IMG/VR virus record: IMGVR_UViG_2563366800_000008
DNA length: 31,111 bases
Origin: a virus
Taxonomy: Duplodnaviria; Heunggongvirae; Uroviricota; Caudoviricetes
Strand: one strand, 5' to 3'
How positions within the stretch are numbered: position 1 is the first letter of the stretch; the number at the start of each line of letters is the position of its first letter. The notes under the pieces are model-generated. The model saw nothing but the letters and a program-made list of their open reading frames with translations. It had not been told where the DNA came from and did no database searches. The position numbers and the translations under genes are program-made. Positions 12,983 through 22,900 of this stretch are shown one piece after another.

Positions 12983-14562
12983 CGACGATGACGCCGGACA
13001 GAACACTCACCAGTCAGTCCGCTGCGGCTATCCTGTCGGGCGAGTTCGACAAAAGCCAGCTACTGCTTCCCTACCAGAAGCGGTGGATTGCCGACTCCTC
13101 TCAACTGAAGATTGCCGAGAAGTCGCGTCGTACCGGTCTGACCTGGGCGGAAGCCGCTGACGCGGCCCTCAACGGCTCAATGTCGGTGGAGGCCGGTGGG
13201 TGCGACACATTCTACGTCGGCACAACGAAAGACATGGCCCGTGAGTTTATTGATGCCTGTGCCATGTGGGCGAAAGCCTATGACCGCGCCGCGTCTGGCA
13301 TTGGTGAAGAAGTGCTGAAGGATGAAGACAAAGACATCCTGGTCTATGTCATCCAGTTCGCCAGTGGCTACAAAATCAAGGCGCTGTCGTCTAACCCGTC
13401 GAACCTGCGTGGTATGCAGGGTAACGTCATCATTGATGAGGCCGCATTCCAGGCTGACCTTGCAGCGGTACTCAAGGCGGCGCTGGCGCTGACAATGTGG
13501 GGGAATAATGTTCGCCTTATTTCCACTCACAACGGTATTGATAACCTGTTTAACACCATCATCACCGACAGCCGGGCCGGGAAAAAACGCTACTCTGTCC
13601 ATCACGTCGATATTGAAACGGCCATTGCAGAGGGGCTGTATCAGCGCATCTGTCAGGTTACAAAAAAAGTCTGGTCTGTGGAGGCCGAAGCGGAATGGCT
13701 GGCTAACCTGCTGAGCGACACGGCCACAGAGGAAGATGCCCGCGAGGAATACTACTGCGAGCCGAAGAACGGCGGTGGCGTCTATATCGCACGTTCCCTG
13801 CGCGAACGTGCGGCCAGAGGTCCGACCGTTGTCCTGCGCTTCACCGGTACGGCTGATTTTAACGCGATGCCGGACGGACTGCGCCGTGTGGAAATGCAGG
13901 AATGGCTGGAGACGGTCGTACTACCCGAACTGGAGAAGCTGCCGCAGAACCTGCGCCACTGTCTGGGGGAGGACTTTGCGCGTAATGGTGACCTGACCGT
14001 GTTTGCACCGGTGACAGTCAACGATGACACGACGCGCAACGTCCCGTTCCTGGTGGAACTCAGCAATGTGCCATTTAAACAGCAGGAGCAGGCGCTGTTT
14101 TATATCTGTGACAGGCTTCCCCGCCGTGACGGCATCAAGCTCGATGCGCGGGGTAACGGTCAGTATCTGGCAGAACAGGCGGCGGAAAAATACGGTGATG
14201 AAGTTGAGCAGGTGCAGCTTTCCGTCAAATACTACCGGGAGAACATGCCACGGTTCCGTGCGGCATTCGAAGACAATGAGCTGGTACTGCCAAAGCATGA
14301 AGATGTGATCACAGACCTCGGCGCAATTCAGCTTTATCGCGGCGTACCGGGCATTGATGATGCACGAACTACCGGCACCGATGGCCGCAAGCGTCACGGT
14401 GACTCTGCTATCGCTATTTTTCTCGGTTTCCTCGCCAGTCGCGAGGACTGCCGCCGTTATGAAGTCCACAAGTTAAAGAAACCTTCCCGCCCCGATGAGC
14501 GTAATGAACACCGTCAGGTCCGCATCACACGGGGTCTTAAAAATCAGCGGGGATTACTCTGA
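12979..14562 (+). CDS. Terminase large subunit (Mu gp28-like)
   Basis: 527-aa ORF, the size and position of Mu gp28; acidic nuclease-like C-terminal half. Confidence 0.85.
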   Translation: MTTMTPDRTLTSQSAAAILSGEFDKSQLLLPYQKRWIADSSQLKIAEKSRRTGLTWAEAADAALNGSMSVEAGGCDTFYVGTTKDMAREFIDACAMWAKAYDRAASGIGEEVLKDEDKDILVYVIQFASGYKIKALSSNPSNLRGMQGNVIIDEAAFQADLAAVLKAALALTMWGNNVRLISTHNGIDNLFNTIITDSRAGKKRYSVHHVDIETAIAEGLYQRICQVTKKVWSVEAEAEWLANLLSDTATEEDAREEYYCEPKNGGGVYIARSLRERAARGPTVVLRFTGTADFNAMPDGLRRVEMQEWLETVVLPELEKLPQNLRHCLGEDFARNGDLTVFAPVTVNDDTTRNVPFLVELSNVPFKQQEQALFYICDRLPRRDGIKLDARGNGQYLAEQAAEKYGDEVEQVQLSVKYYRENMPRFRAAFEDNELVLPKHEDVITDLGAIQLYRGVPGIDDARTTGTDGRKRHGDSAIAIFLGFLASREDCRRYEVHKLKKPSRPDERNEHRQVRITRGLKNQRGLL

Positions 14563-16130
14563 TGTTTAAACAACTAACCGGAGCCGTTCGCCGGCTGCTC
14601 AGTCCTGCCACGGGAGAAGTTGTCACCGTGAACAAGGATGAGCTGAAGCAGACGCAATCCGCAGCGGCGGTAATGAGTGTACGTTCCCCCTCGGCAGGTA
14701 TCAGCGTTGCCAGTACGCTGAGTCCCGGCAGGCTTGCGGGGATCTTACGTAATGCAGCCGATGGTCATGCCCGTGATTTCTTCATTATGGCGGAGGAACT
14801 GGAGGAACGTGACCTCCACTACGCCAGCGTTTTACGTACACGCAAGCTGACGGTTTCCGGGATTGAACCTTCAGTGGAGGCCGGGAGCGATTCCCCGCGG
14901 GATGTGGAAATCGCAGATGATATCCGTAACCTCATGGCGCAACCGCAGGTTCCCGAACTGCTGTTCGATTTGCTGGACGGGCTTGGTAAAGGCGTTGGTG
15001 TCTGCGAAATCCTCTGGAATACCAGCACCACACTCTGGAAACCCCGCGATTATGAATGGGTAGATCCACGTTTTCTGAAACCTGACCGGGAAACGCTGCG
15101 TGATTTCAGACTACTGACGGACAGGAACCCCATCGATGGTGAGCCATTGTCACCGGGGAAATTTATCGTCCATAAGCCCCGCCTGAAATCCGGTCTGCCC
15201 TTGCGTAACGGTCTGGCGCGTCTGGTGGCCGTCATGTATATGCTCAAGTCCTACACAGTCCGGGACTGGTGGGCGTTTGCTGAAAAATTTGGCATCCCGA
15301 TTGTGGTGGGTAAATACGGCAACAACGCCAGCCCGGAACAAATCCAGACATTGCTGGATGCGATTGCATCACTGGCATCAGATGCCGGCTGCGCAATCCC
15401 CGACTCGATGAAACTGGAGATGCAGGAAGCGGCGAGCCGTAACAGCGGTGGCACTCTCTTTAAAGAGATGGCCGAATGGTGTGACGCGCAGATTAGTAAG
15501 GCCGTACTGGGGCAGACCATGACCACGGATGACGGCAGTTCACGTGCTCAGGCGGAAGTCCACAATGGTGTGCGTATGGACATCGCCAAATGGGATGCCT
15601 GGCAGTTATCCAACACGCTGTCTGAATTCCTTGTTCGTCCCTATGTGGATATGAATTACGGACCACAGGAGCATTACCCCCGCGTCGTTCTGCGCATCAG
15701 CAAACCGGAAGATCTTAAGGTTCTGGTGGATGCACTGTCGCCGCTGATTGACCGGGGGATGGAAGTTCAGATGTCAGAGATCCGTGACAAATTCGGGCTG
15801 TCTGAACCGGAGAAAGGCGCAAAAATTCTGACACCAACGGCGCAAATGACTAACCCACTACCGGCCATGAACCGTGAGCAGACTGCGCTTAACCGCAGCC
15901 AGCCTGACGTTCTTGATATGATGGTGGATGAAGCGATGAATGACTGGCAGCGTACCGGCGATGCGTTCACCAGTCCGGTGCTTGAGCTGGCAAAGAAATC
16001 TGACAGCTTTGAATCTTTTCTTGCTGGCCTGCCGGCGCTTCAGAAAGAACTTGATGCGGATGAGTTTGCGACGCAGCTGGCGATGCTCTGTTTTAAAGCC
16101 CGGTCGCTGGGAGATGTAAACGATGGCTAA
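14562..16130 (+). CDS. Portal protein (Mu gp29 family)
   Basis: 522-aa ORF immediately after the terminase; size and position match the Mu portal. Confidence 0.85.
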   Translation: MFKQLTGAVRRLLSPATGEVVTVNKDELKQTQSAAAVMSVRSPSAGISVASTLSPGRLAGILRNAADGHARDFFIMAEELEERDLHYASVLRTRKLTVSGIEPSVEAGSDSPRDVEIADDIRNLMAQPQVPELLFDLLDGLGKGVGVCEILWNTSTTLWKPRDYEWVDPRFLKPDRETLRDFRLLTDRNPIDGEPLSPGKFIVHKPRLKSGLPLRNGLARLVAVMYMLKSYTVRDWWAFAEKFGIPIVVGKYGNNASPEQIQTLLDAIASLASDAGCAIPDSMKLEMQEAASRNSGGTLFKEMAEWCDAQISKAVLGQTMTTDDGSSRAQAEVHNGVRMDIAKWDAWQLSNTLSEFLVRPYVDMNYGPQEHYPRVVLRISKPEDLKVLVDALSPLIDRGMEVQMSEIRDKFGLSEPEKGAKILTPTAQMTNPLPAMNREQTALNRSQPDVLDMMVDEAMNDWQRTGDAFTSPVLELAKKSDSFESFLAGLPALQKELDADEFATQLAMLCFKARSLGDVNDG

Positions 16131-16917
16131 GCCGGTCAGCGATAAATACAGCATTATTCCCCAGGAAGCACTGGCCTGGCTGAAGGCGAAAAAGCTGAAG
16201 CCGGGATTTGATTACCGCGATGTCTGGATGGAAGAACACAGCATCGGCTTTACTGTGGCAAAGATGACGCAGCTTGATTTGCTGGCGGACGTTCGCCAGC
16301 TCGTGGAGGACGCACTGGAGAGCGGCCAGACCTTTGAGCAATTTCGCGAGGTTCTTAAACCTATGCTGGTCAAACGTGGATGGTGGGGACAGCAACTGAT
16401 GGATGATCCACTGACCGGTGAAACCCGTACTGTCCAGCTCGGCAGTGACCGCCGGATGCGCGTTATCTACGACACCAACATGCGGACAGCCCGCGCGGCG
16501 GGACAATGGCAGCGTATTGAACGGACCCAACGGGCAATGCCTTATCTTGTCTACACCGTCGGCCCCTCACGTGAGCACCGTGCGGAGCATCTGCGCTGGA
16601 AGGATGTCTGCCTGCCGGTGGATCATCCGTTCTGGCGAACACACATGGGGCCGAACGGCTGGGGATGCAAATGCGGTACACGGCAAATCAGCCGGTATGA
16701 GTATGAGCAGATGAAGGCCAACGGCACTATCAACACGGAAGCCCCTGAAGTGCGTACGGTCAGATGGGTTAACAAACGCACCGGCGAAGAAGAGACCATT
16801 CCGGAGGGGATTGATCCCGGCTGGGCGTACAACCCCGGAATCTCCCGCAGTCGCGAGCTGGATGAACAGCTACGCAGAAAACAGGACGCGTTTGACAGTC
16901 ATTCGCCACAAAGATAA
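16123..16917 (+). CDS. Head morphogenesis protein (Mu F-like)
   Basis: 264-aa ORF after the portal, the position of Mu F. Confidence 0.7.
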   Translation: MAKPVSDKYSIIPQEALAWLKAKKLKPGFDYRDVWMEEHSIGFTVAKMTQLDLLADVRQLVEDALESGQTFEQFREVLKPMLVKRGWWGQQLMDDPLTGETRTVQLGSDRRMRVIYDTNMRTARAAGQWQRIERTQRAMPYLVYTVGPSREHRAEHLRWKDVCLPVDHPFWRTHMGPNGWGCKCGTRQISRYEYEQMKANGTINTEAPEVRTVRWVNKRTGEEETIPEGIDPGWAYNPGISRSRELDEQLRRKQDAFDSHSPQR

Positions 16918-16958
16918 AAACCATCCCACAACGCGCGTGGCGGCATTAACGATTATTA

Positions 16959-17060
16959 CGTCATGACGGCACGTGAAAAAATCGTTAAACGCGCCACAGC
17001 GTTTTTAAACGTGTTTTAAACGCGGTTTCATGCCGCGTTTACAGTGAAGCCGGTTAATCC
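16959..17060 (+). promoter_or_regulatory. Head-operon upstream regulatory array: palindromes, 9-mer repeats and the shared 16-mer
   Basis: Palindrome CGTCATGACG (16959-16968), CACGTG (16970-16975), three direct TTAAACGYG copies (16985, 17005, 17016) and one inverted copy forming a 9-bp stem (17017-17041), then TGAAGCCGGTTAATCC (17045-17060), 61 nt before the protease/scaffold ATG. Confidence 0.5.
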
Positions 17061-17120
17061 ACCTGCATCCCCGTTCCCCCCCACACTGTCCGGAAGTAAA
17101 CAACGTGACCGGACAACACC

Positions 17121-18077
17121 ATGAACCCGAACAATACGGAACTGCTGGCGCTCTGCTTTCAGCTTCCTGACCTTACCGATGATGCATTGCCGGAATGGCT
17201 GCCGATGATACCGGCGGGAACCTTTACAGGGCGTGATGGCCGTTCGTGGGTGAACAACAATCCGGAAGCCATCATTCGTGCCTCGATGGCTTATCCAAAG
17301 CTCCCGTTTGATATCGAGCACTCTACCGAACTGAAAGGCCCGAAAGGCGATGAAGCCCCGGCTTATGGCTGGATTGACGGCTATCGCGTCAGTGATGGCG
17401 TGGTGGAGGCGCACGTTGAATGGACTGATGACGGCATGGCGCAGCTGCGCGGCAAGAAGTACCTCTATTACAGTCCGGCCTTTCGGTTCACTGCGGACGG
17501 TCAGGTCACCCGCCTGTCCAGCGCCGCGCTGACCAACAAACCCAACCTTGATTTACCCGCACTCAACTCTGAGGAAAACACGATGACCGTACCTGTCCAG
17601 ATTGTGACAGTGCTTGGCCTCGCGGCCACTGCCACAGCAGACGACGCAGTAAAAGCCATTCAGCAGATTAAGACCGCCGAGCAGGTGGCGCTTAACCGCG
17701 CTGAGAATCCTGACCTGACGAAGTTCATTCCGGTAGAGACCCACCAGTTAGCACTTAACCGTGCGGAAAGCGCTGAAAACAAACTCAATGAGATTGCCAT
17801 CAAAGAATCAGAAGCACTGGTGGACAGCGCCATTGAGTCGGGGAAAGTCGCACCGGCCAACCGAGAAATGTATCTCGCCACCTGCCGCTCTGAAGAGGGC
17901 CGAAAGCGGTTTGCTGAATTCGTGAAAGCGGCACCGGTCATTGTCAGCAAGACCACGACGACCAAAAAAGAAGGCACCGAAGGTCATGCCTCGCTTTCTG
18001 ACGAAGACCTCGCGATGTGCCGCCATATGGGCATCAGCGAAGAAGAATTCCTTTCCGTTCGTAAGCAGGAGAAATAA
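17121..18077 (+). CDS. Head maturation protease / scaffold (Mu I family)
   Basis: 318-aa ORF directly upstream of the major head gene; N-terminal protease-like region and Ala/Glu-rich helical C-terminal region as in Mu gpI. Confidence 0.8.
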   Translation: MNPNNTELLALCFQLPDLTDDALPEWLPMIPAGTFTGRDGRSWVNNNPEAIIRASMAYPKLPFDIEHSTELKGPKGDEAPAYGWIDGYRVSDGVVEAHVEWTDDGMAQLRGKKYLYYSPAFRFTADGQVTRLSSAALTNKPNLDLPALNSEENTMTVPVQIVTVLGLAATATADDAVKAIQQIKTAEQVALNRAENPDLTKFIPVETHQLALNRAESAENKLNEIAIKESEALVDSAIESGKVAPANREMYLATCRSEEGRKRFAEFVKAAPVIVSKTTTTKKEGTEGHASLSDEDLAMCRHMGISEEEFLSVRKQEK

Positions 18078-18080
18078 TTC

Positions 18081-18974
18081 ATGCAGGTATCCGCAGAAGT
18101 GTTGCATGCCCTGACCACCGCACTGAGCGCCGCCTTTACCAAAGGTGTTGGTCGGGTCAATCCGCAGTATCGATCCATCGCCACGGTCATCCCCAGTTCC
18201 GGCGCGTCTAACACTTATGGCTGGGTTGAAGACTTCCCGACCATCAAAGAATGGATCGGGGCGCGTCAGCTGAAAGAACTGGCTCAGGCCGGGTATGTCA
18301 TTACCAACAAGACCTGGGAAAACTCGGTCAAGGTCAAGCGCGAAAAAATCGAGGACGATCAGATTGGTCAGTATTCCGTGATTGCTGAGCAGCTTGGCCG
18401 CGATACCACGATTTTCCCGGACAAGCTGTCGTTTGAGTTGCTGTGCAAAGGCTTCGATACGCTGTGCTGGGACGGTCAGTATTTCTTCGATACTGATCAC
18501 CCTGTTGGTACATCCACCAAATCGAACGTTGTGGGCGACCCGGCGACCGATACGGGTGAGCCGTGGTTCCTGATTGATGCAACGCATGCGCTGCTGCCCA
18601 TCATTTACCAGGAGCGCCGTCCGTTTAACTTCATCGCCCTTGATGATCTCACCAGTGAGCGTGTGTTCCTTCAGAACGAATTCGCCTACGGGACCGATGG
18701 CCGCAGCAACGTTGGCTTTGGTTTCTGGCAGACCTGTGTGGGGTCAAAAGCAGCACTGAACAAAGCGAACTATGAAGCCGCTGTCTCCGCAATGATGGGT
18801 ATCACGGACTCTAACGGCGAACCTCTGGGCATGAATCCGACATTGCTGGTCGTCGGTAAGAACAACCGTGGTGCGGCCAAGGCGCTGATTGAAGCGGTTA
18901 CGGCTGATGGTGGTGGTTCAAACATCTATTACAAGGATGTTGACCTGCTGGTCTCACCTTACGTCAAAGCATGA
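18081..18974 (+). CDS. Major head subunit (Mu T family)
   Basis: 297-aa ORF after the protease/scaffold; size and position match Mu gpT. Confidence 0.85.
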   Translation: MQVSAEVLHALTTALSAAFTKGVGRVNPQYRSIATVIPSSGASNTYGWVEDFPTIKEWIGARQLKELAQAGYVITNKTWENSVKVKREKIEDDQIGQYSVIAEQLGRDTTIFPDKLSFELLCKGFDTLCWDGQYFFDTDHPVGTSTKSNVVGDPATDTGEPWFLIDATHALLPIIYQERRPFNFIALDDLTSERVFLQNEFAYGTDGRSNVGFGFWQTCVGSKAALNKANYEAAVSAMMGITDSNGEPLGMNPTLLVVGKNNRGAAKALIEAVTADGGGSNIYYKDVDLLVSPYVKA

Positions 18975-19008
18975 CGTCATTACGTAAAAAATCACGTAAT
19001 GCCGGATT

Positions 19009-19029
19009 AAGGAGGGGTTAACCCTCCTT
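19009..19029 (+). other. Stem-loop after the major head gene, possible attenuator
   Basis: AAGGAGGG (19009-19016) pairs with CCCTCCTT (19022-19029) around a GTTAA loop; only a short T run follows. Preceded by inverted repeat CATTACGT/ACGTAATG (18978-19001). Confidence 0.4.
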
Positions 19030-19057
19030 TAAACCCAACCTGAATGAGGTTTAAAAA

Positions 19058-19651
19058 GTGAGTGGAAAAGTTAATAAGTCAGCCGCTGGTAAGACCGGAA
19101 CCACTTCGGAAAAGAAAGACGACAAAGCAACGAAGGATACGCCTGTCCCGGCGAAACCGGCACCGGTGGCACCAGTTATTACTGATGACAGTCAGGCATC
19201 ACAACCGGCGGTTGCAGCTTCAGATGTCGCATCTGACCCGGAACCTGTACCCGGTGACAATGGAATAACGGTTATCCCGGCCACAGTCAGTCTTGTCACC
19301 ATACCGGGTGAGAACACGGGTGATGACCTGAGAAAACATCTCTGGCAGGAGACGCTGGCACATGACCATTCAGAGGCTGTTCGCATTGCTGAAAATGTCG
19401 TGGTGCTGGAGGTCCGCGCCATTCCGGAAAACGGTTTTCGCCGGGCTGGCCGATTCTGGCCGCACGATACGGTGCATGTGTTTGTCAGCGATAACCCGGA
19501 TGAACAGATTCTGGAAGATGCCGGTGGTAATCCGCTACAGGGGTGCGTGATCAGTACCGACACAGCCCTGCGTCTGAAGGCTGAAAAGATGCTGATTGTG
19601 ACCGAACTGGCGACCGTTGCCGGGACTGAAGCCGACGTGGAGAGCAAATAA
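19058..19651 (+). CDS. Hypothetical virion-associated protein with Ala/Pro/Thr-rich low-complexity N-terminus
   Basis: 197-aa ORF with GTG start and GAGG 9 nt upstream; lies between the major head gene and the gp36-like gene. Confidence 0.55.
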   Translation: MSGKVNKSAAGKTGTTSEKKDDKATKDTPVPAKPAPVAPVITDDSQASQPAVAASDVASDPEPVPGDNGITVIPATVSLVTIPGENTGDDLRKHLWQETLAHDHSEAVRIAENVVVLEVRAIPENGFRRAGRFWPHDTVHVFVSDNPDEQILEDAGGNPLQGCVISTDTALRLKAEKMLIVTELATVAGTEADVESK

Positions 19652-20091
19652 TGGGCATCTACGTAACGCGTGAGGACCTGCTGGCAACCGATGGTGACCG
19701 CGTCTGGAACATGGCAATCAACAAAGAGACGCAGCAGCTCGACGAAGAAAAGATCCAGCGTGCGATTGATGACACTGATGCAGAAATTAATTCCTTTCTG
19801 GCAAAGCGTTATCAGTTGCCGCTGAACCTTCCGAGCCTGCCGAGTCCGTTGCGCCGGGCGGCGGTTTCCATCGCGTTCTACTGGCTGTCTGAACGGGACC
19901 ATCAGATCACCGATGAAATCCAGAAGCGTTACGACGAAGCCCTCCGCACCCTGCGTGAAATCGCCAACGGCACCCGTGACCTCGGTGTGCCGTCTGACAC
20001 CCCGGTCCCTGAGACCGACACCGGAAAGCTGATCATCGTCAGTGAAAACCGTCGTCTGTTCACCCGTAACAACCTGAAAGGGGTGCTGTGA
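19651..20091 (+). CDS. Mu gp36-like head-tail joining protein
   Basis: 146-aa ORF in the Mu gp36 position; start overlaps the upstream stop. Confidence 0.65.
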   Translation: MGIYVTREDLLATDGDRVWNMAINKETQQLDEEKIQRAIDDTDAEINSFLAKRYQLPLNLPSLPSPLRRAAVSIAFYWLSERDHQITDEIQKRYDEALRTLREIANGTRDLGVPSDTPVPETDTGKLIIVSENRRLFTRNNLKGVL

Positions 20092-20633
20092 TGGGAATTA
20101 CTGTCGAGGTCAGAGGAGACCAGAAGTTTCAGGACATTCGCCGTGCGATTGAGCGACTGGCTGACCAGTCGCTGCAACAGGAGCTACTGGAGAGCATTGG
20201 CGCTGTGGTGGAGTCACAGACCCGCCGGCGCATCTCCAGCGAAAAATCCAGTCCTGCCGGCGAGAAATGGCAGGACTGGTCTGACAGCTACGCGAAAACC
20301 AGACACAGCAACCAGAGCCTGTTACAGGGCAACGGCGATCTGCTCGACAGTATCCAGTATGTGGTCAGCGGCTCTGTCGTTCGTGTGGGTACGCCGCTTG
20401 ATTATGGCCGGACGCACAACGAGGGGTTTTCCGGCTCGGTGTCTGTGTCAGCCCATAAGCGACTCATCTCACAGGCATTTGGACGGGCGCTTAAACACGG
20501 GGTATGGCAAACCGTGGGGGCGCATAAACGTATGTTGAACATCCCGCAGCGTGAGTTCCTCGGCCTGTCCTCCGGGAACAGTCAGGAACTGCTGCACGTC
20601 ATCGGGGATTTCTGGAATGAGGTTCTGCAATGA
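20088..20633 (+). CDS. Phage virion morphogenesis protein (gpG/S-like)
   Basis: 181-aa ORF, translationally coupled (ATGA overlap) to the previous gene. Confidence 0.6.
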   Translation: MMGITVEVRGDQKFQDIRRAIERLADQSLQQELLESIGAVVESQTRRRISSEKSSPAGEKWQDWSDSYAKTRHSNQSLLQGNGDLLDSIQYVVSGSVVRVGTPLDYGRTHNEGFSGSVSVSAHKRLISQAFGRALKHGVWQTVGAHKRMLNIPQREFLGLSSGNSQELLHVIGDFWNEVLQ

Positions 20634-21253
20634 ATGAACGTCCGGCGTTCGTCACCCTGGGCAGTACGGTCAGTGCCGCCGAGAATATTGTTAACTGGCT
20701 GAAAGCTGAACTGGAGGGTGAAAAGCAACCTGACCGGGTTGAAAAGGTGGAGCGTCACATCGGTCAGTTTAACACCCCGGATCAGGTCAAAAGCTATATG
20801 TCCGGGCGCGGCGGCAGTATCCGTATTGCGGCCTTACGGGTCAGGAATATCCAGAACCGTCGCGGCATGACCGGACTTGTGACCTGGGCGGCCTACATCA
20901 TGATGGCTGATTTCTGGGGATACCCGCGCGATGCCCGCTGTGAGGTTATTGCCGGACGCCTTGCCCGTCGTATCAGTTGTCGTGAAGCGGCTGCGGGCAT
21001 GAAGGCTGAGCGTATGGCTGAGAACATCGCCGCTGAAAACCTCTGGTCGGGTGGCCTGGACAATCTCGGGATCACCATGTGGGCCGTTACATGGGAACAG
21101 GAATTCCGTCTTGATGATGAGATAGACCTGTCCACGCTGCCGGAATTCCTGCGACTGGGGGCAACCATTGTGGTGAACGGACAGCCTGTAAGCGATGAGC
21201 CGCAAATCATAAACGTAAGAGAAGGACAGACTGATGACAAAGAAAATGATTAA
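20630..21253 (+). CDS. Mu gp37-like protein
   Basis: 207-aa ORF in conserved position before the tail sheath gene. Confidence 0.6.
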   Translation: MNERPAFVTLGSTVSAAENIVNWLKAELEGEKQPDRVEKVERHIGQFNTPDQVKSYMSGRGGSIRIAALRVRNIQNRRGMTGLVTWAAYIMMADFWGYPRDARCEVIAGRLARRISCREAAAGMKAERMAENIAAENLWSGGLDNLGITMWAVTWEQEFRLDDEIDLSTLPEFLRLGATIVVNGQPVSDEPQIINVREGQTDDKEND

Positions 21254-21422
21254 GCCATCACGGGCGGGCCTGCTCGTTCGTAAGGCTGATGGCAGTCACC
21301 TTGCCGCTGATGGCGAGACGCTGCCGGTCAATGCGTACTGGCTGCGCCGTGAAAAAGAAGGCGATGTGAATATCACTGAGCCACCGAAGTCCCGCACACC
21401 TAAAACCGATAAGGAGGCATGA
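21234..21422 (+). CDS. Small Mu gp38-like protein
   Basis: 62-aa ORF with AGAAGGA upstream; immediately precedes the sheath gene. Confidence 0.5.
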   Translation: MTKKMIKPSRAGLLVRKADGSHLAADGETLPVNAYWLRREKEGDVNITEPPKSRTPKTDKEA

Positions 21423-22900
21423 TGTCCATCGGTAATATTCCTGATGATATTCGTGTCCCGCTGGTCTGGATCGATATCGATAACTCTATGGCGATGAGTG
21501 CCGCGCCGGCACAGTCCCGAAAAATTCTGGTTGTGGGTCAGCAGCTCGCCAGCGCGACTGCTTTACCGTTGACGCTGAACCGTATTACTGGCGACAGCAT
21601 GGCTGATGAACTCTATGGCCGTGGCTCCATGCTGGGTGAAATGGCAAAGATGGTCCGTATGGCCAACAGTTACACCGAGATGTATGCGATGGGACTGGAA
21701 GATATTGCCCAGGGTGCCGCGGCGAGTGCCACAGTCACGATGCTCGGCACCGCCACTCAGGCTGGTACGCTGGCACTGATGATCAATGGCGTATCTGTCC
21801 AGGTCGGGGTCAGCATCGGTGATGAAGCGGCAACCATTGCCGGCAATATCATCGCTGCAATTACCGCAAAGCCTGCCACTCAGGTTACTGCCACAGCAAA
21901 AGCTGAAGCTGCTGCAACGGTAGTGCTGACCGTGAAGTGGAAAGGCGTCACGGGAAATGACAGTGATGTGCGCCTGAACTATTACGCCGGAGAAAAAACA
22001 CCTGCCGGCATCAGTGCAACACTGACCGCATTTTCGGGTGGTACGGGGACGCCGGATATTCAGTCTGTTGTCGCGGCGCTGGGAGATGACTGGTACACGG
22101 ATATCATCTTCCCGTACCTCGATGCCCAGAGCCTGAACACCATTCGTGACGAACTGCTGGAACGCTGGGGGCCGCTCAAGATGATGGAGGCGCTGTTGTG
22201 GTCTGCTTATCGCGGAACACATGCCCAGAGCGGAACATTCGGACATACCCGCAATGACTGGCTGATTTCCTGTATCGGCACCAACATCGCACCTGAACCG
22301 TCATGGATGTGGGCCGCCAGCTACGGTGCAACGGCGGCATACCAGCTTGCCATAGATCCGGCCCGTCCTCTCCAGACTCTGATCCTGACAGGCATCAAGC
22401 CCCCCGCTCGCGGTATCCGCTGGGATATGCCAGAGCGTAACCTGCTGTTGCATGACGGTATCGCCACGCACTTTGTTGATGCCGGAGATAACGTCTGTAT
22501 TGAGCGCGAAATCACCATGTACCGCGTAAACCGCTATGGCGATACGGACATTTCATACCTCGATGTGCAGTCGCCAGCAACGCTTGGCCGTATCCGTTAT
22601 GTCATCAAAAACCGTTTCACCAGTCGCTACCCACGCCACAAGCTGGCGGGTGATGACGTGCTTGATTTGCTCGATGCCGGTCAGCCAGTCATGACGCCAA
22701 AAATCTGTCGGGCTGAGTTACTGGATATTGCGCTGACTGAGCTTATCCCGGCAGGTCTGGTGGAGGATTTCGAAGATTATAAAGACACGCTTGATGTCAC
22801 CATCGACAGCAAAGACCCAAACCGTCTGAACTTTATCTGCCACCCGAATCTGGTGAATCAGTTGCGCGTTCTGGCCGGTCTCATCCAGTTCAAACTTTAA
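21419..22900 (+). CDS. Contractile tail sheath protein (Mu L family)
   Basis: 493-aa ORF followed directly by a small tube-like gene, the sheath/tube pair of myovirus tails. Confidence 0.85.
   Translation: MMSIGNIPDDIRVPLVWIDIDNSMAMSAAPAQSRKILVVGQQLASATALPLTLNRITGDSMADELYGRGSMLGEMAKMVRMANSYTEMYAMGLEDIAQGAAASATVTMLGTATQAGTLALMINGVSVQVGVSIGDEAATIAGNIIAAITAKPATQVTATAKAEAAATVVLTVKWKGVTGNDSDVRLNYYAGEKTPAGISATLTAFSGGTGTPDIQSVVAALGDDWYTDIIFPYLDAQSLNTIRDELLERWGPLKMMEALLWSAYRGTHAQSGTFGHTRNDWLISCIGTNIAPEPSWMWAASYGATAAYQLAIDPARPLQTLILTGIKPPARGIRWDMPERNLLLHDGIATHFVDAGDNVCIEREITMYRVNRYGDTDISYLDVQSPATLGRIRYVIKNRFTSRYPRHKLAGDDVLDLLDAGQPVMTPKICRAELLDIALTELIPAGLVEDFEDYKDTLDVTIDSKDPNRLNFICHPNLVNQLRVLAGLIQFKL

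Follow-up and report, generated by a model that had tools for sequence, protein, structure and literature searches.

A candidate capsid decoration protein with a predicted FluMu_N-type domain, encoded after the major head gene of a Mu-like prophage

The head-gene locus and the reading frame

The window, by which we mean the whole stretch of DNA analysed (31,111 nt; IMG/VR virus record IMGVR_UViG_2563366800_000008, Caudoviricetes), contains the late head genes of a Mu-like prophage, and a prophage identical to that of the window is carried by E. coli ECONIH4. The features are listed in Table 1. The gene under study encodes a protein of 197 aa and lies directly after the gene for the major head subunit, as the first-pass annotation had placed it. 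Its stop codon shares bases with the start codon of the adaptor gene (ATAATG). The gpT-type head subunit, which is 41% identical to gp38 of Pseudomonas phage JBD30, is the presumed binding partner of the 197-aa protein.

Table 1. Coordinates of the features discussed in the text (positions are those of the window).
Feature	Position	Strand	Basis or description
Portal	14562..16130		PF06074
F-like protein	16123..16917		Context gene
Protease/scaffold I	17121..18077		PF10123
Major head subunit, Mu gpT type	18081..18974	+	PF10124, E=2.1e-109
Two stem-loops	18978-19001 and 19010-19028	+	RNA fold of the spacer
Shine-Dalgarno sequence GAGG	19046..19049	+	8 nt 5' of the GTG; direct sequence reading
CDS of the 197-aa protein	19058..19651	+	197 aa, GTG start, TAA stop
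N-terminal low-complexity region, predicted disordered, aa 1-110	19058..19387	+	pLDDT, indels, low conservation
Conserved C-terminal domain, aa 113-186	19394..19615	+	Invariant columns, AlphaFold2 model, profile links
Acidic insertion of ~19 aa, aa ~146-164, NPDEQILEDAGGNPLQGCV	19493..19549	+	Between the third strand and the helix
Head-tail adaptor, Mu gp36 type	19651..20091	+	PF07030, E=1.4e-32; directly 3' of the 197-aa CDS
Sheath	21419..22900		Myovirus-type tail

The gene order was compared with that of Mu. The window lacks a G-like gene from the F-I interval (16917-17121), and its F-like protein is short (264 aa versus about 439 aa in Mu). Downstream, the adaptor gene is followed by a Phage_tail_S / 'virion morphogenesis' gene (20088-20633, 181 aa), a gene for a 207-aa protein without a Pfam match (20630-21253), DUF2635 and then the sheath gene.

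Among 80 IMG/VR loci carrying a related gene, a gpT-type head gene was found upstream in 76 and a gp36-type adaptor gene starting just downstream in 79, and the domain gene occupied the slot between gpT and gp36 in about 75 of the 80 viral contigs. Four loci had no detected head gene: two were short of upstream sequence, one held too little for a whole gene, and one (L077, IMGVR_UViG_2531839178_000011) was flanked and gave no match. The last has a truncated ORF of 74 aa and no detectable gpT gene despite 2.9 kb of upstream flank; the contig is possibly rearranged or chimeric.

The head gene and the gene under study are separated by a spacer of 83 nt, which was predicted to fold into two stem-loops with an energy of -29.9 kcal/mol (z=-4.0; none of 200 shuffled sequences was equally stable). 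A third, weaker stem-loop (within 18975-19054) could mask the Shine-Dalgarno sequence. Neither a canonical intrinsic terminator nor a sigma-70 promoter was found by a simple scan, the terminator scan being empty because the stem-loops are not followed by a T-run. In Mu, a terminator is predicted at the corresponding position. The stem-loops of the spacer may act as an attenuator or an RNA-stability element, and may set the ratio of head-protein expression to that of the downstream genes.

The GTG is the earliest possible start codon in the frame, and the RefSeq/PGAP annotation of E. coli ECONIH4 has a CDS with identical coordinates (WP_016239603.1, labelled 'hypothetical protein'). Among 72 unique relatives, 58 also start with GTG and 61 have a GAGG-type Shine-Dalgarno sequence before the start. 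The GTG start and the Shine-Dalgarno sequence read in the first-pass annotation were thus both corroborated. The protein matched phrog_10420 of the PHROGs collection (E=2.9e-84), which is annotated there as 'unknown function', and 183 homologues were retrieved from a large protein collection, so that the ORF is conserved in related phages. The family was found in Mu-like prophages of Citrobacter, Klebsiella, Raoultella, Rahnella and a few E. coli; the gene was carried by 5 of 5426 complete E. coli genomes, and the closer relatives of the protein were mostly from Citrobacter. The INPHARED phage collection gave a single partial relative, in the unannotated Klebsiella phage Kp4866-3.

The sense frame was uninterrupted in every relative examined (a dozen diverged ones) and the remaining five frames were broken. 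The start codon, the Shine-Dalgarno sequence and an N-terminal MSG(K/T)..K motif were kept in relatives of just about 35% identity. The ORF is therefore a real conserved gene and not a chance frame, as follows from the phrog_10420 match, the 183 homologues and its being the sole frame kept open in diverged relatives. An ORF of 236 aa on the minus strand (19192..19902) was rejected as a shadow ORF since it is interrupted in the relatives.

The C-terminal domain and its relatives

The conserved part of the protein is a C-terminal domain of about 75 residues, which is under purifying selection (dN/dS 0.10-0.26). Its pLDDT was 70-84 in the full-length AlphaFold2 model, and a domain-only model built with a 48-sequence alignment had a mean pLDDT of 74.9. 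The elements were predicted in the order strand (114-121), hairpin with the sequence GFRRAGRFW, strand (139-144), loop with two mini-strands, helix (167-174) and strand (179-187). The helix motif is TALRLKAE, of which RLKAE is invariant across the family. The acidic insertion of 19 aa, which contains the only cysteine of the protein (C163), is missing in the short FluMu_N forms, in gp39 of JBD30 and in gp35 of Mu. A compact C-terminal domain had been proposed in the first-pass annotation; the structure prediction and the invariant columns agree that it is present, while its boundaries had been set wrong by about 40 residues.

Pfam and NCBIfam scans of the protein gave no match (for Pfam, none at E<=0.1 with the full protein). 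The gathering score of PF17891 (FluMu_N), 25.8 bits, was not reached, because the insertion of about 19 aa splits the domain. Searching PDB sequences with phmmer returned chance matches only, such as a pantothenate kinase at E~0.4. A profile of aa 108-197 was then searched exhaustively against 1.84 billion representative proteins and gave 71 clusters at E<=1e-3. The matches graded from long forms with the insertion to short forms of about 50 residues without it, and PF17891 was present in 14 of the 54 matches scanned (best E=1.2e-13). In the four that were checked (P0171, P0172, P0186 and P0193), the residues matched by Pfam were those matched by the profile.

The iterated profile matched the N-terminal domain of HI1506 with E=5.5e-5 in a set with 560 decoy sequences. 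When the domain model was compared by Foldseek with 350,542 PDB chains, HI1506 (2OUT) ranked first (TM 0.45, with E=1.3 not significant alone) and the JBD30 chain was not among the matches returned; against BFVD, a 'FluMu N-terminal domain-containing protein' ranked first (E=0.017, probability 1.0), these E-values being short of significance by themselves. The full-length model, of low confidence, gave nothing usable in Foldseek. Cross-matches between PHROGs via intermediate proteins joined phrog_10420 with phrog_2498 (Mu gp35) and phrog_4833 (JBD30 gp39). By these profile links the domain is best classified as a divergent FluMu_N domain (PF17891, the N-terminal domain of HI1506 and Mu gp35) bearing an insertion.

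The same small domain occurs elsewhere at the N-terminus, in tandem, or fused to HHH_5, Rho_N/SAP-like or Mu-gp35-type C-terminal modules (examples of such rearranged proteins are P0171, P0193, P0172, P0182 and P0177). This arrangement suggests that the FluMu_N-type domain is a shuffled docking domain with exchangeable partners. At rank 11 of the Foldseek search against the PDB stood YqbF of a B. subtilis prophage (2HJQ), with TM 0.39, rmsd 4.7 and a non-significant E of 6.6. The yqbF gene also follows a capsid gene and the C-terminus of YqbF is Rho_N-like; YqbF could be a very distant analogue.

The nearest structurally described protein is gp39 of JBD30, a minor capsid protein whose gene lies directly after the gpT-type head gene (PMC11445458). 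By cryo-EM, its trimers occupy the threefold and quasi-threefold axes in mature T=7 capsids and are absent from procapsids, and decoration was seen on about 5 of 12 particles (PMC11445458). Residues 1-52 were unresolved, and the remainder folds as a three-stranded sheet with a short hairpin and a helix, called a beta-tadpole (PMC11445458). The PDB entries 8RKC/8RQE hold 427 gp39 chains, named as a FluMu_N-domain protein, which is consistent with one per capsid subunit. The sequence of gp39 has a tail rich in Lys, Ala, Thr, Pro and Asp followed by '...VFVRATVERRCRAGFCFDKEGQGFADGVLSDEQLEALESDPLLKVERC...', and Pfam FluMu_N matched it just below the threshold (E=9.3e-5).

BLASTP found no significant match between the 197-aa protein and gp39 (E=0.39), and word-indexed protein searches with the gp39 domain and with Mu gp35 returned close relatives only. 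With hhalign, the 48-sequence alignment of the domain matched gp39 alone over its entire ordered domain (P=6.6e-4). Against a 6-sequence alignment of the gp39 family, which included two relatives of 49-56% identity with the motif SFRRAGFRF, the probability was 95.7% with E=9.4e-9 over 63 columns, again covering the whole ordered domain. The insertion appeared there as one gap of 19 columns. Judged by these alignments, the C-terminal domain and the ordered part of gp39 are homologous. The two proteins also share the slot between the gpT-type head gene and the gp36-type adaptor gene, a disordered N-terminus rich in Lys, Ala, Thr, Pro and Asp before a small C-terminal domain, an R-A-G-F hairpin motif and an 'L..L.(A/S)(E/D)P.L.V' helix-strand motif. 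The predicted strand-hairpin-strand-helix-strand order agrees with the published description of gp39.

The differences are in size, detail and context. The protein has 197 aa versus 113 aa in gp39, with a tail about twice as long, and the acidic insertion within the domain is absent from gp39. The disulfide Cys67-Cys72 in the hairpin of gp39 is missing in GFRRAGRFW, which has no Cys. The phage of the window has a myovirus-type tail, whereas JBD30 has a siphovirus tail. The published contacts (gp39 E91, S95, D96 and K100; MCP K66, T193, S194, K197 and E198) were compared as well. The capsid-contact segment E91-K100 of gp39 aligned with the family-invariant RLKAE, and D96 with the family-invariant E176. 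On the capsid side, Lys66 of the JBD30 MCP is K in the window phage and A in the head proteins of 54 of 77 relatives, the contact residues of helix alpha5 differ from those of JBD30, and the contact residues overall appear not to be conserved.

Given the homology to gp39, the gene position and the architecture, the 197-aa protein is probably an accessory (minor) capsid decoration protein of the JBD30 gp39 type, to which we assign a probability of roughly 0.6. The first-pass annotation had offered a decoration or cementing protein, or a linker-tethered accessory head protein, and this remains the best-supported reading by sequence comparison.

The main alternative is that the protein acts like Mu gp35, as a transient or low-copy factor in head completion, head-tail joining or assembly that forms no ordered shell on the mature capsid. 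Mu gp35 is encoded after gene T of Mu, carries Pfam FluMu_N and is related to HI1506 (PDB 2OUT). These proteins share with ours the superfamily domain, the gene slot after the major head gene and a small domain with a (Y/F)RRAG motif; by eye, the 197-aa protein and gp35 have (Y/F)RRAG followed by 'L..(L/I)(K/R)A(D/E)..L.V'. A GenBank note suggests head completion or head-tail joining for gp35. Cryo-EM of Mu showed no cement proteins and did not locate gp35, which is described just as 'probably structural' and possibly connector-related (PMC11915804). That connector role lacks structural backing, since the portal, adaptor and terminator of Mu were resolved with no density for gp35 (PMC11915804).

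Virion proteomics could also be taken on the side of a gp35-like role. In the mass spectrometry of Mu-like SuMu virions the gp35 equivalent was not reported. For PaMx73, the accessible part of the report gives 13 virion proteins, with the portal, the major head protein, two morphogenesis proteins and the accessory ORF h as head-module products, and in that part no product of the post-capsid gene is listed, so that it was apparently undetected in virions (PMC4378225). A small protein could escape such proteomics, either by detaching during CsCl banding or by running off a 10% gel.

The layout of the protein argues against a gp35-like role. Mu gp35 and HI1506 have the domain at the N-terminus, ahead of a helical C-terminal domain (PKVKAVSAALG...), whereas in the 197-aa protein the domain is C-terminal after a long disordered tail, as in gp39, and the helical domain is absent. 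A two-domain protein of the gp35/HI1506 type was rejected for that reversed order and missing domain. BLASTP gave no match to gp35, including its C-terminal half, and hhalign against a shallow alignment of the gp35 family gave E=0.17 and 0.056 with only the FRRAG hairpin aligned. The direct comparisons with gp35 being not significant, the link to Mu rests on intermediate sequences, and the profile match is far stronger to the gp39 family (E=9.4e-9) than to the gp35 family (E=0.056). We consider a gp35-like role unlikely. By its sequence relations the protein is a rearranged, distant counterpart of Mu gp35, since it has the same FluMu_N superfamily domain in a different domain order. The earlier remark that it does not obviously correspond to the Mu protein at this position was right as to the lack of a BLASTP match and the domain order, and missed the shared superfamily domain.

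A nucleic-acid-binding or regulatory role was once proposed for HI1506-like proteins, and the domain is fused in some family members to DNA/RNA-binding-type modules (HhH, Rho_N or SAP; HHH_5 in P0172, E=4.9e-7, and Rho_N in P0182, E=1.2e-8); a non-structural factor of this kind is very improbable here, as the 197-aa protein has no such module in the Pfam scan, both its halves are net acidic overall, and the fixed position in the head-neck block (80 loci) together with the JBD30 structure argues for a role in the virion.

The N-terminal tail

The first-pass annotation had described about 70 probably disordered residues rich in Ala, Pro and Thr. The N-terminus is indeed predicted to be disordered, with pLDDT below 50 at residues 1-109 of the full-length AlphaFold2 model, including a low-confidence helix at aa 88-99, and with many indels; its length is about 110 residues rather than 70. 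It is Ala- and Pro-rich and equally rich in Lys, Asp and Ser (aa 1-70: A 11, P 9, K 8, D 8, S 7, V 7, T 6). The first 35 residues are basic (net +4), and aa 36-110 are acidic (net -9) and rich in Ala, Pro, Val, Thr and Ser.

In an alignment of 17 homologues reaching down to about 35% identity, the only invariant residues were those of the extreme N-terminus, M-S-G-(K/T)-x-x-K, and of aa 113-186. Between them the sequence was variable with many in-frame indels. The dN/dS ratio, calculated by the Nei-Gojobori method for the protein versus six relatives, was 0.80-2.0 for codons 2-110 and 0.10-0.26 for codons 111-197. The tails of 72 unique relatives from the 80 IMG/VR contigs were 16-125 aa long (median 101), rich in A, S, G, T, V and P, and almost without aromatic residues. 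The frame and composition of the tail are thus maintained, and its sequence is essentially unconstrained and evolves near-neutrally. In the gp39 family tails also vary in length, with about 120 aa in distant relatives and a 33-aa tail indel between close ones, and a variable tail is therefore a family trait.

The synonymous divergence of the tail (positions 19058-19387, compared with L009, L011 and L012/L013) was about half of that of the C-terminal domain (dS 0.17 versus 0.33-0.35 against L012/L013) and dN was higher, the counts being small. A motif G-H-(Y/H)-x-x-(V/L), for example 'LPGHYVAVG' or 'TGHYQPV', was seen within the disordered tails of 42 of the 72 unique relatives (among them L019, L028, L036, L045, L050 and L070) and was absent from the E. 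coli/Citrobacter group to which the 197-aa protein belongs (positions 19058-19387). The motif may serve as a short linear element for interaction.

The dN/dS of about 1 or above in codons 2-110 and the annotation of a few relatives from internal starts in databases (e.g. P0033, 153 aa) would fit an untranslated N-terminus, with an internal GTG start (e.g. V113/V114) producing the domain alone (~85 aa) and nt 19058-19390 serving as a leader, which is highly unlikely given that 16-125 N-terminal codons are open in all 72 unique relatives despite divergence and indels while the other frames are not, that relatives keep the Shine-Dalgarno sequence and start codon directly behind the spacer as well as the MSG(K/T)..K motif, that the indels are in frame, and that the gp39 family has a like tail.

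A proposed role on the capsid

As a decoration protein of the gp39 type, the 197-aa protein would dock by its C-terminal beta-tadpole domain as trimers at the threefold and quasi-threefold positions of a T=7 gpT lattice, after expansion of the prohead. The expected copy number would be about one for each capsid subunit, or some 400 in a head. The docked domain would clamp adjacent capsomers and add stability under stress, and the protein would be non-essential. The N-terminal tail would stay outside the ordered shell as a flexible, charged and highly variable projection that can drift freely in length and sequence. More speculatively, initiation at a weak GTG and the stem-loops that follow the head gene might tune the dose of the protein relative to the head protein.

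In the JBD30 study gp39 was likened in topology to the beta-tadpole decoration protein Soc of T4, as a clamp of trimers at quasi-threefold positions that is dispensable but stabilising (PMC11445458). No match to Soc was found for the 197-aa protein in the Pfam, PDB-sequence or Foldseek searches. By extension from gp39, the protein would work in a manner analogous to T4 Soc. To our knowledge, Soc has no long disordered tail.

In some Pseudomonas Mu-like siphophages, such as PaMx73, the candidate decoration gene is a different one, 'ORF h', which is gpD-like by modelling and precedes the major head gene, and its product was found in virions (PMC4378225). Its presence in some Mu-like phages means that Mu-like heads may use more than one decoration system.

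A broader proposal, which we think quite improbable, is that FluMu_N is a general capsid-docking module used in either orientation with varied payloads, and that in this phage some 400 tails of 110 residues form an adaptive surface brush. The payloads of such a module may be disordered tails (the 197-aa protein and gp39), HhH or Rho_N/SAP modules, the helical domain of gp35, or tandem copies. The brush could serve adhesion, prevent aggregation or evade recognition by the host or the immune system, and would then be more than a passive linker.

In conclusion, the 197-aa protein is a currently unannotated member of the FluMu_N superfamily, and its variant features are the insertion within the domain and a tail twice that of gp39. 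A capsid decoration protein at this position would be no surprise to a phage structural biologist. By annotation transfer, the analysis gives a candidate and testable function to a protein that is 'hypothetical' in RefSeq and belongs to phrog_10420 in PHROGs. If the decoration reading is true, the protein would be dispensable, present in many copies on the capsid surface and freely variable at one terminus, which would make it a candidate scaffold for display. The PHROG families 10420, 2498 and 4833 and Pfam FluMu_N are tied into one superfamily, of which the sole structurally located member, gp39 of JBD30, is a capsid decoration protein, and this link bears on the role of gp35 in Mu.
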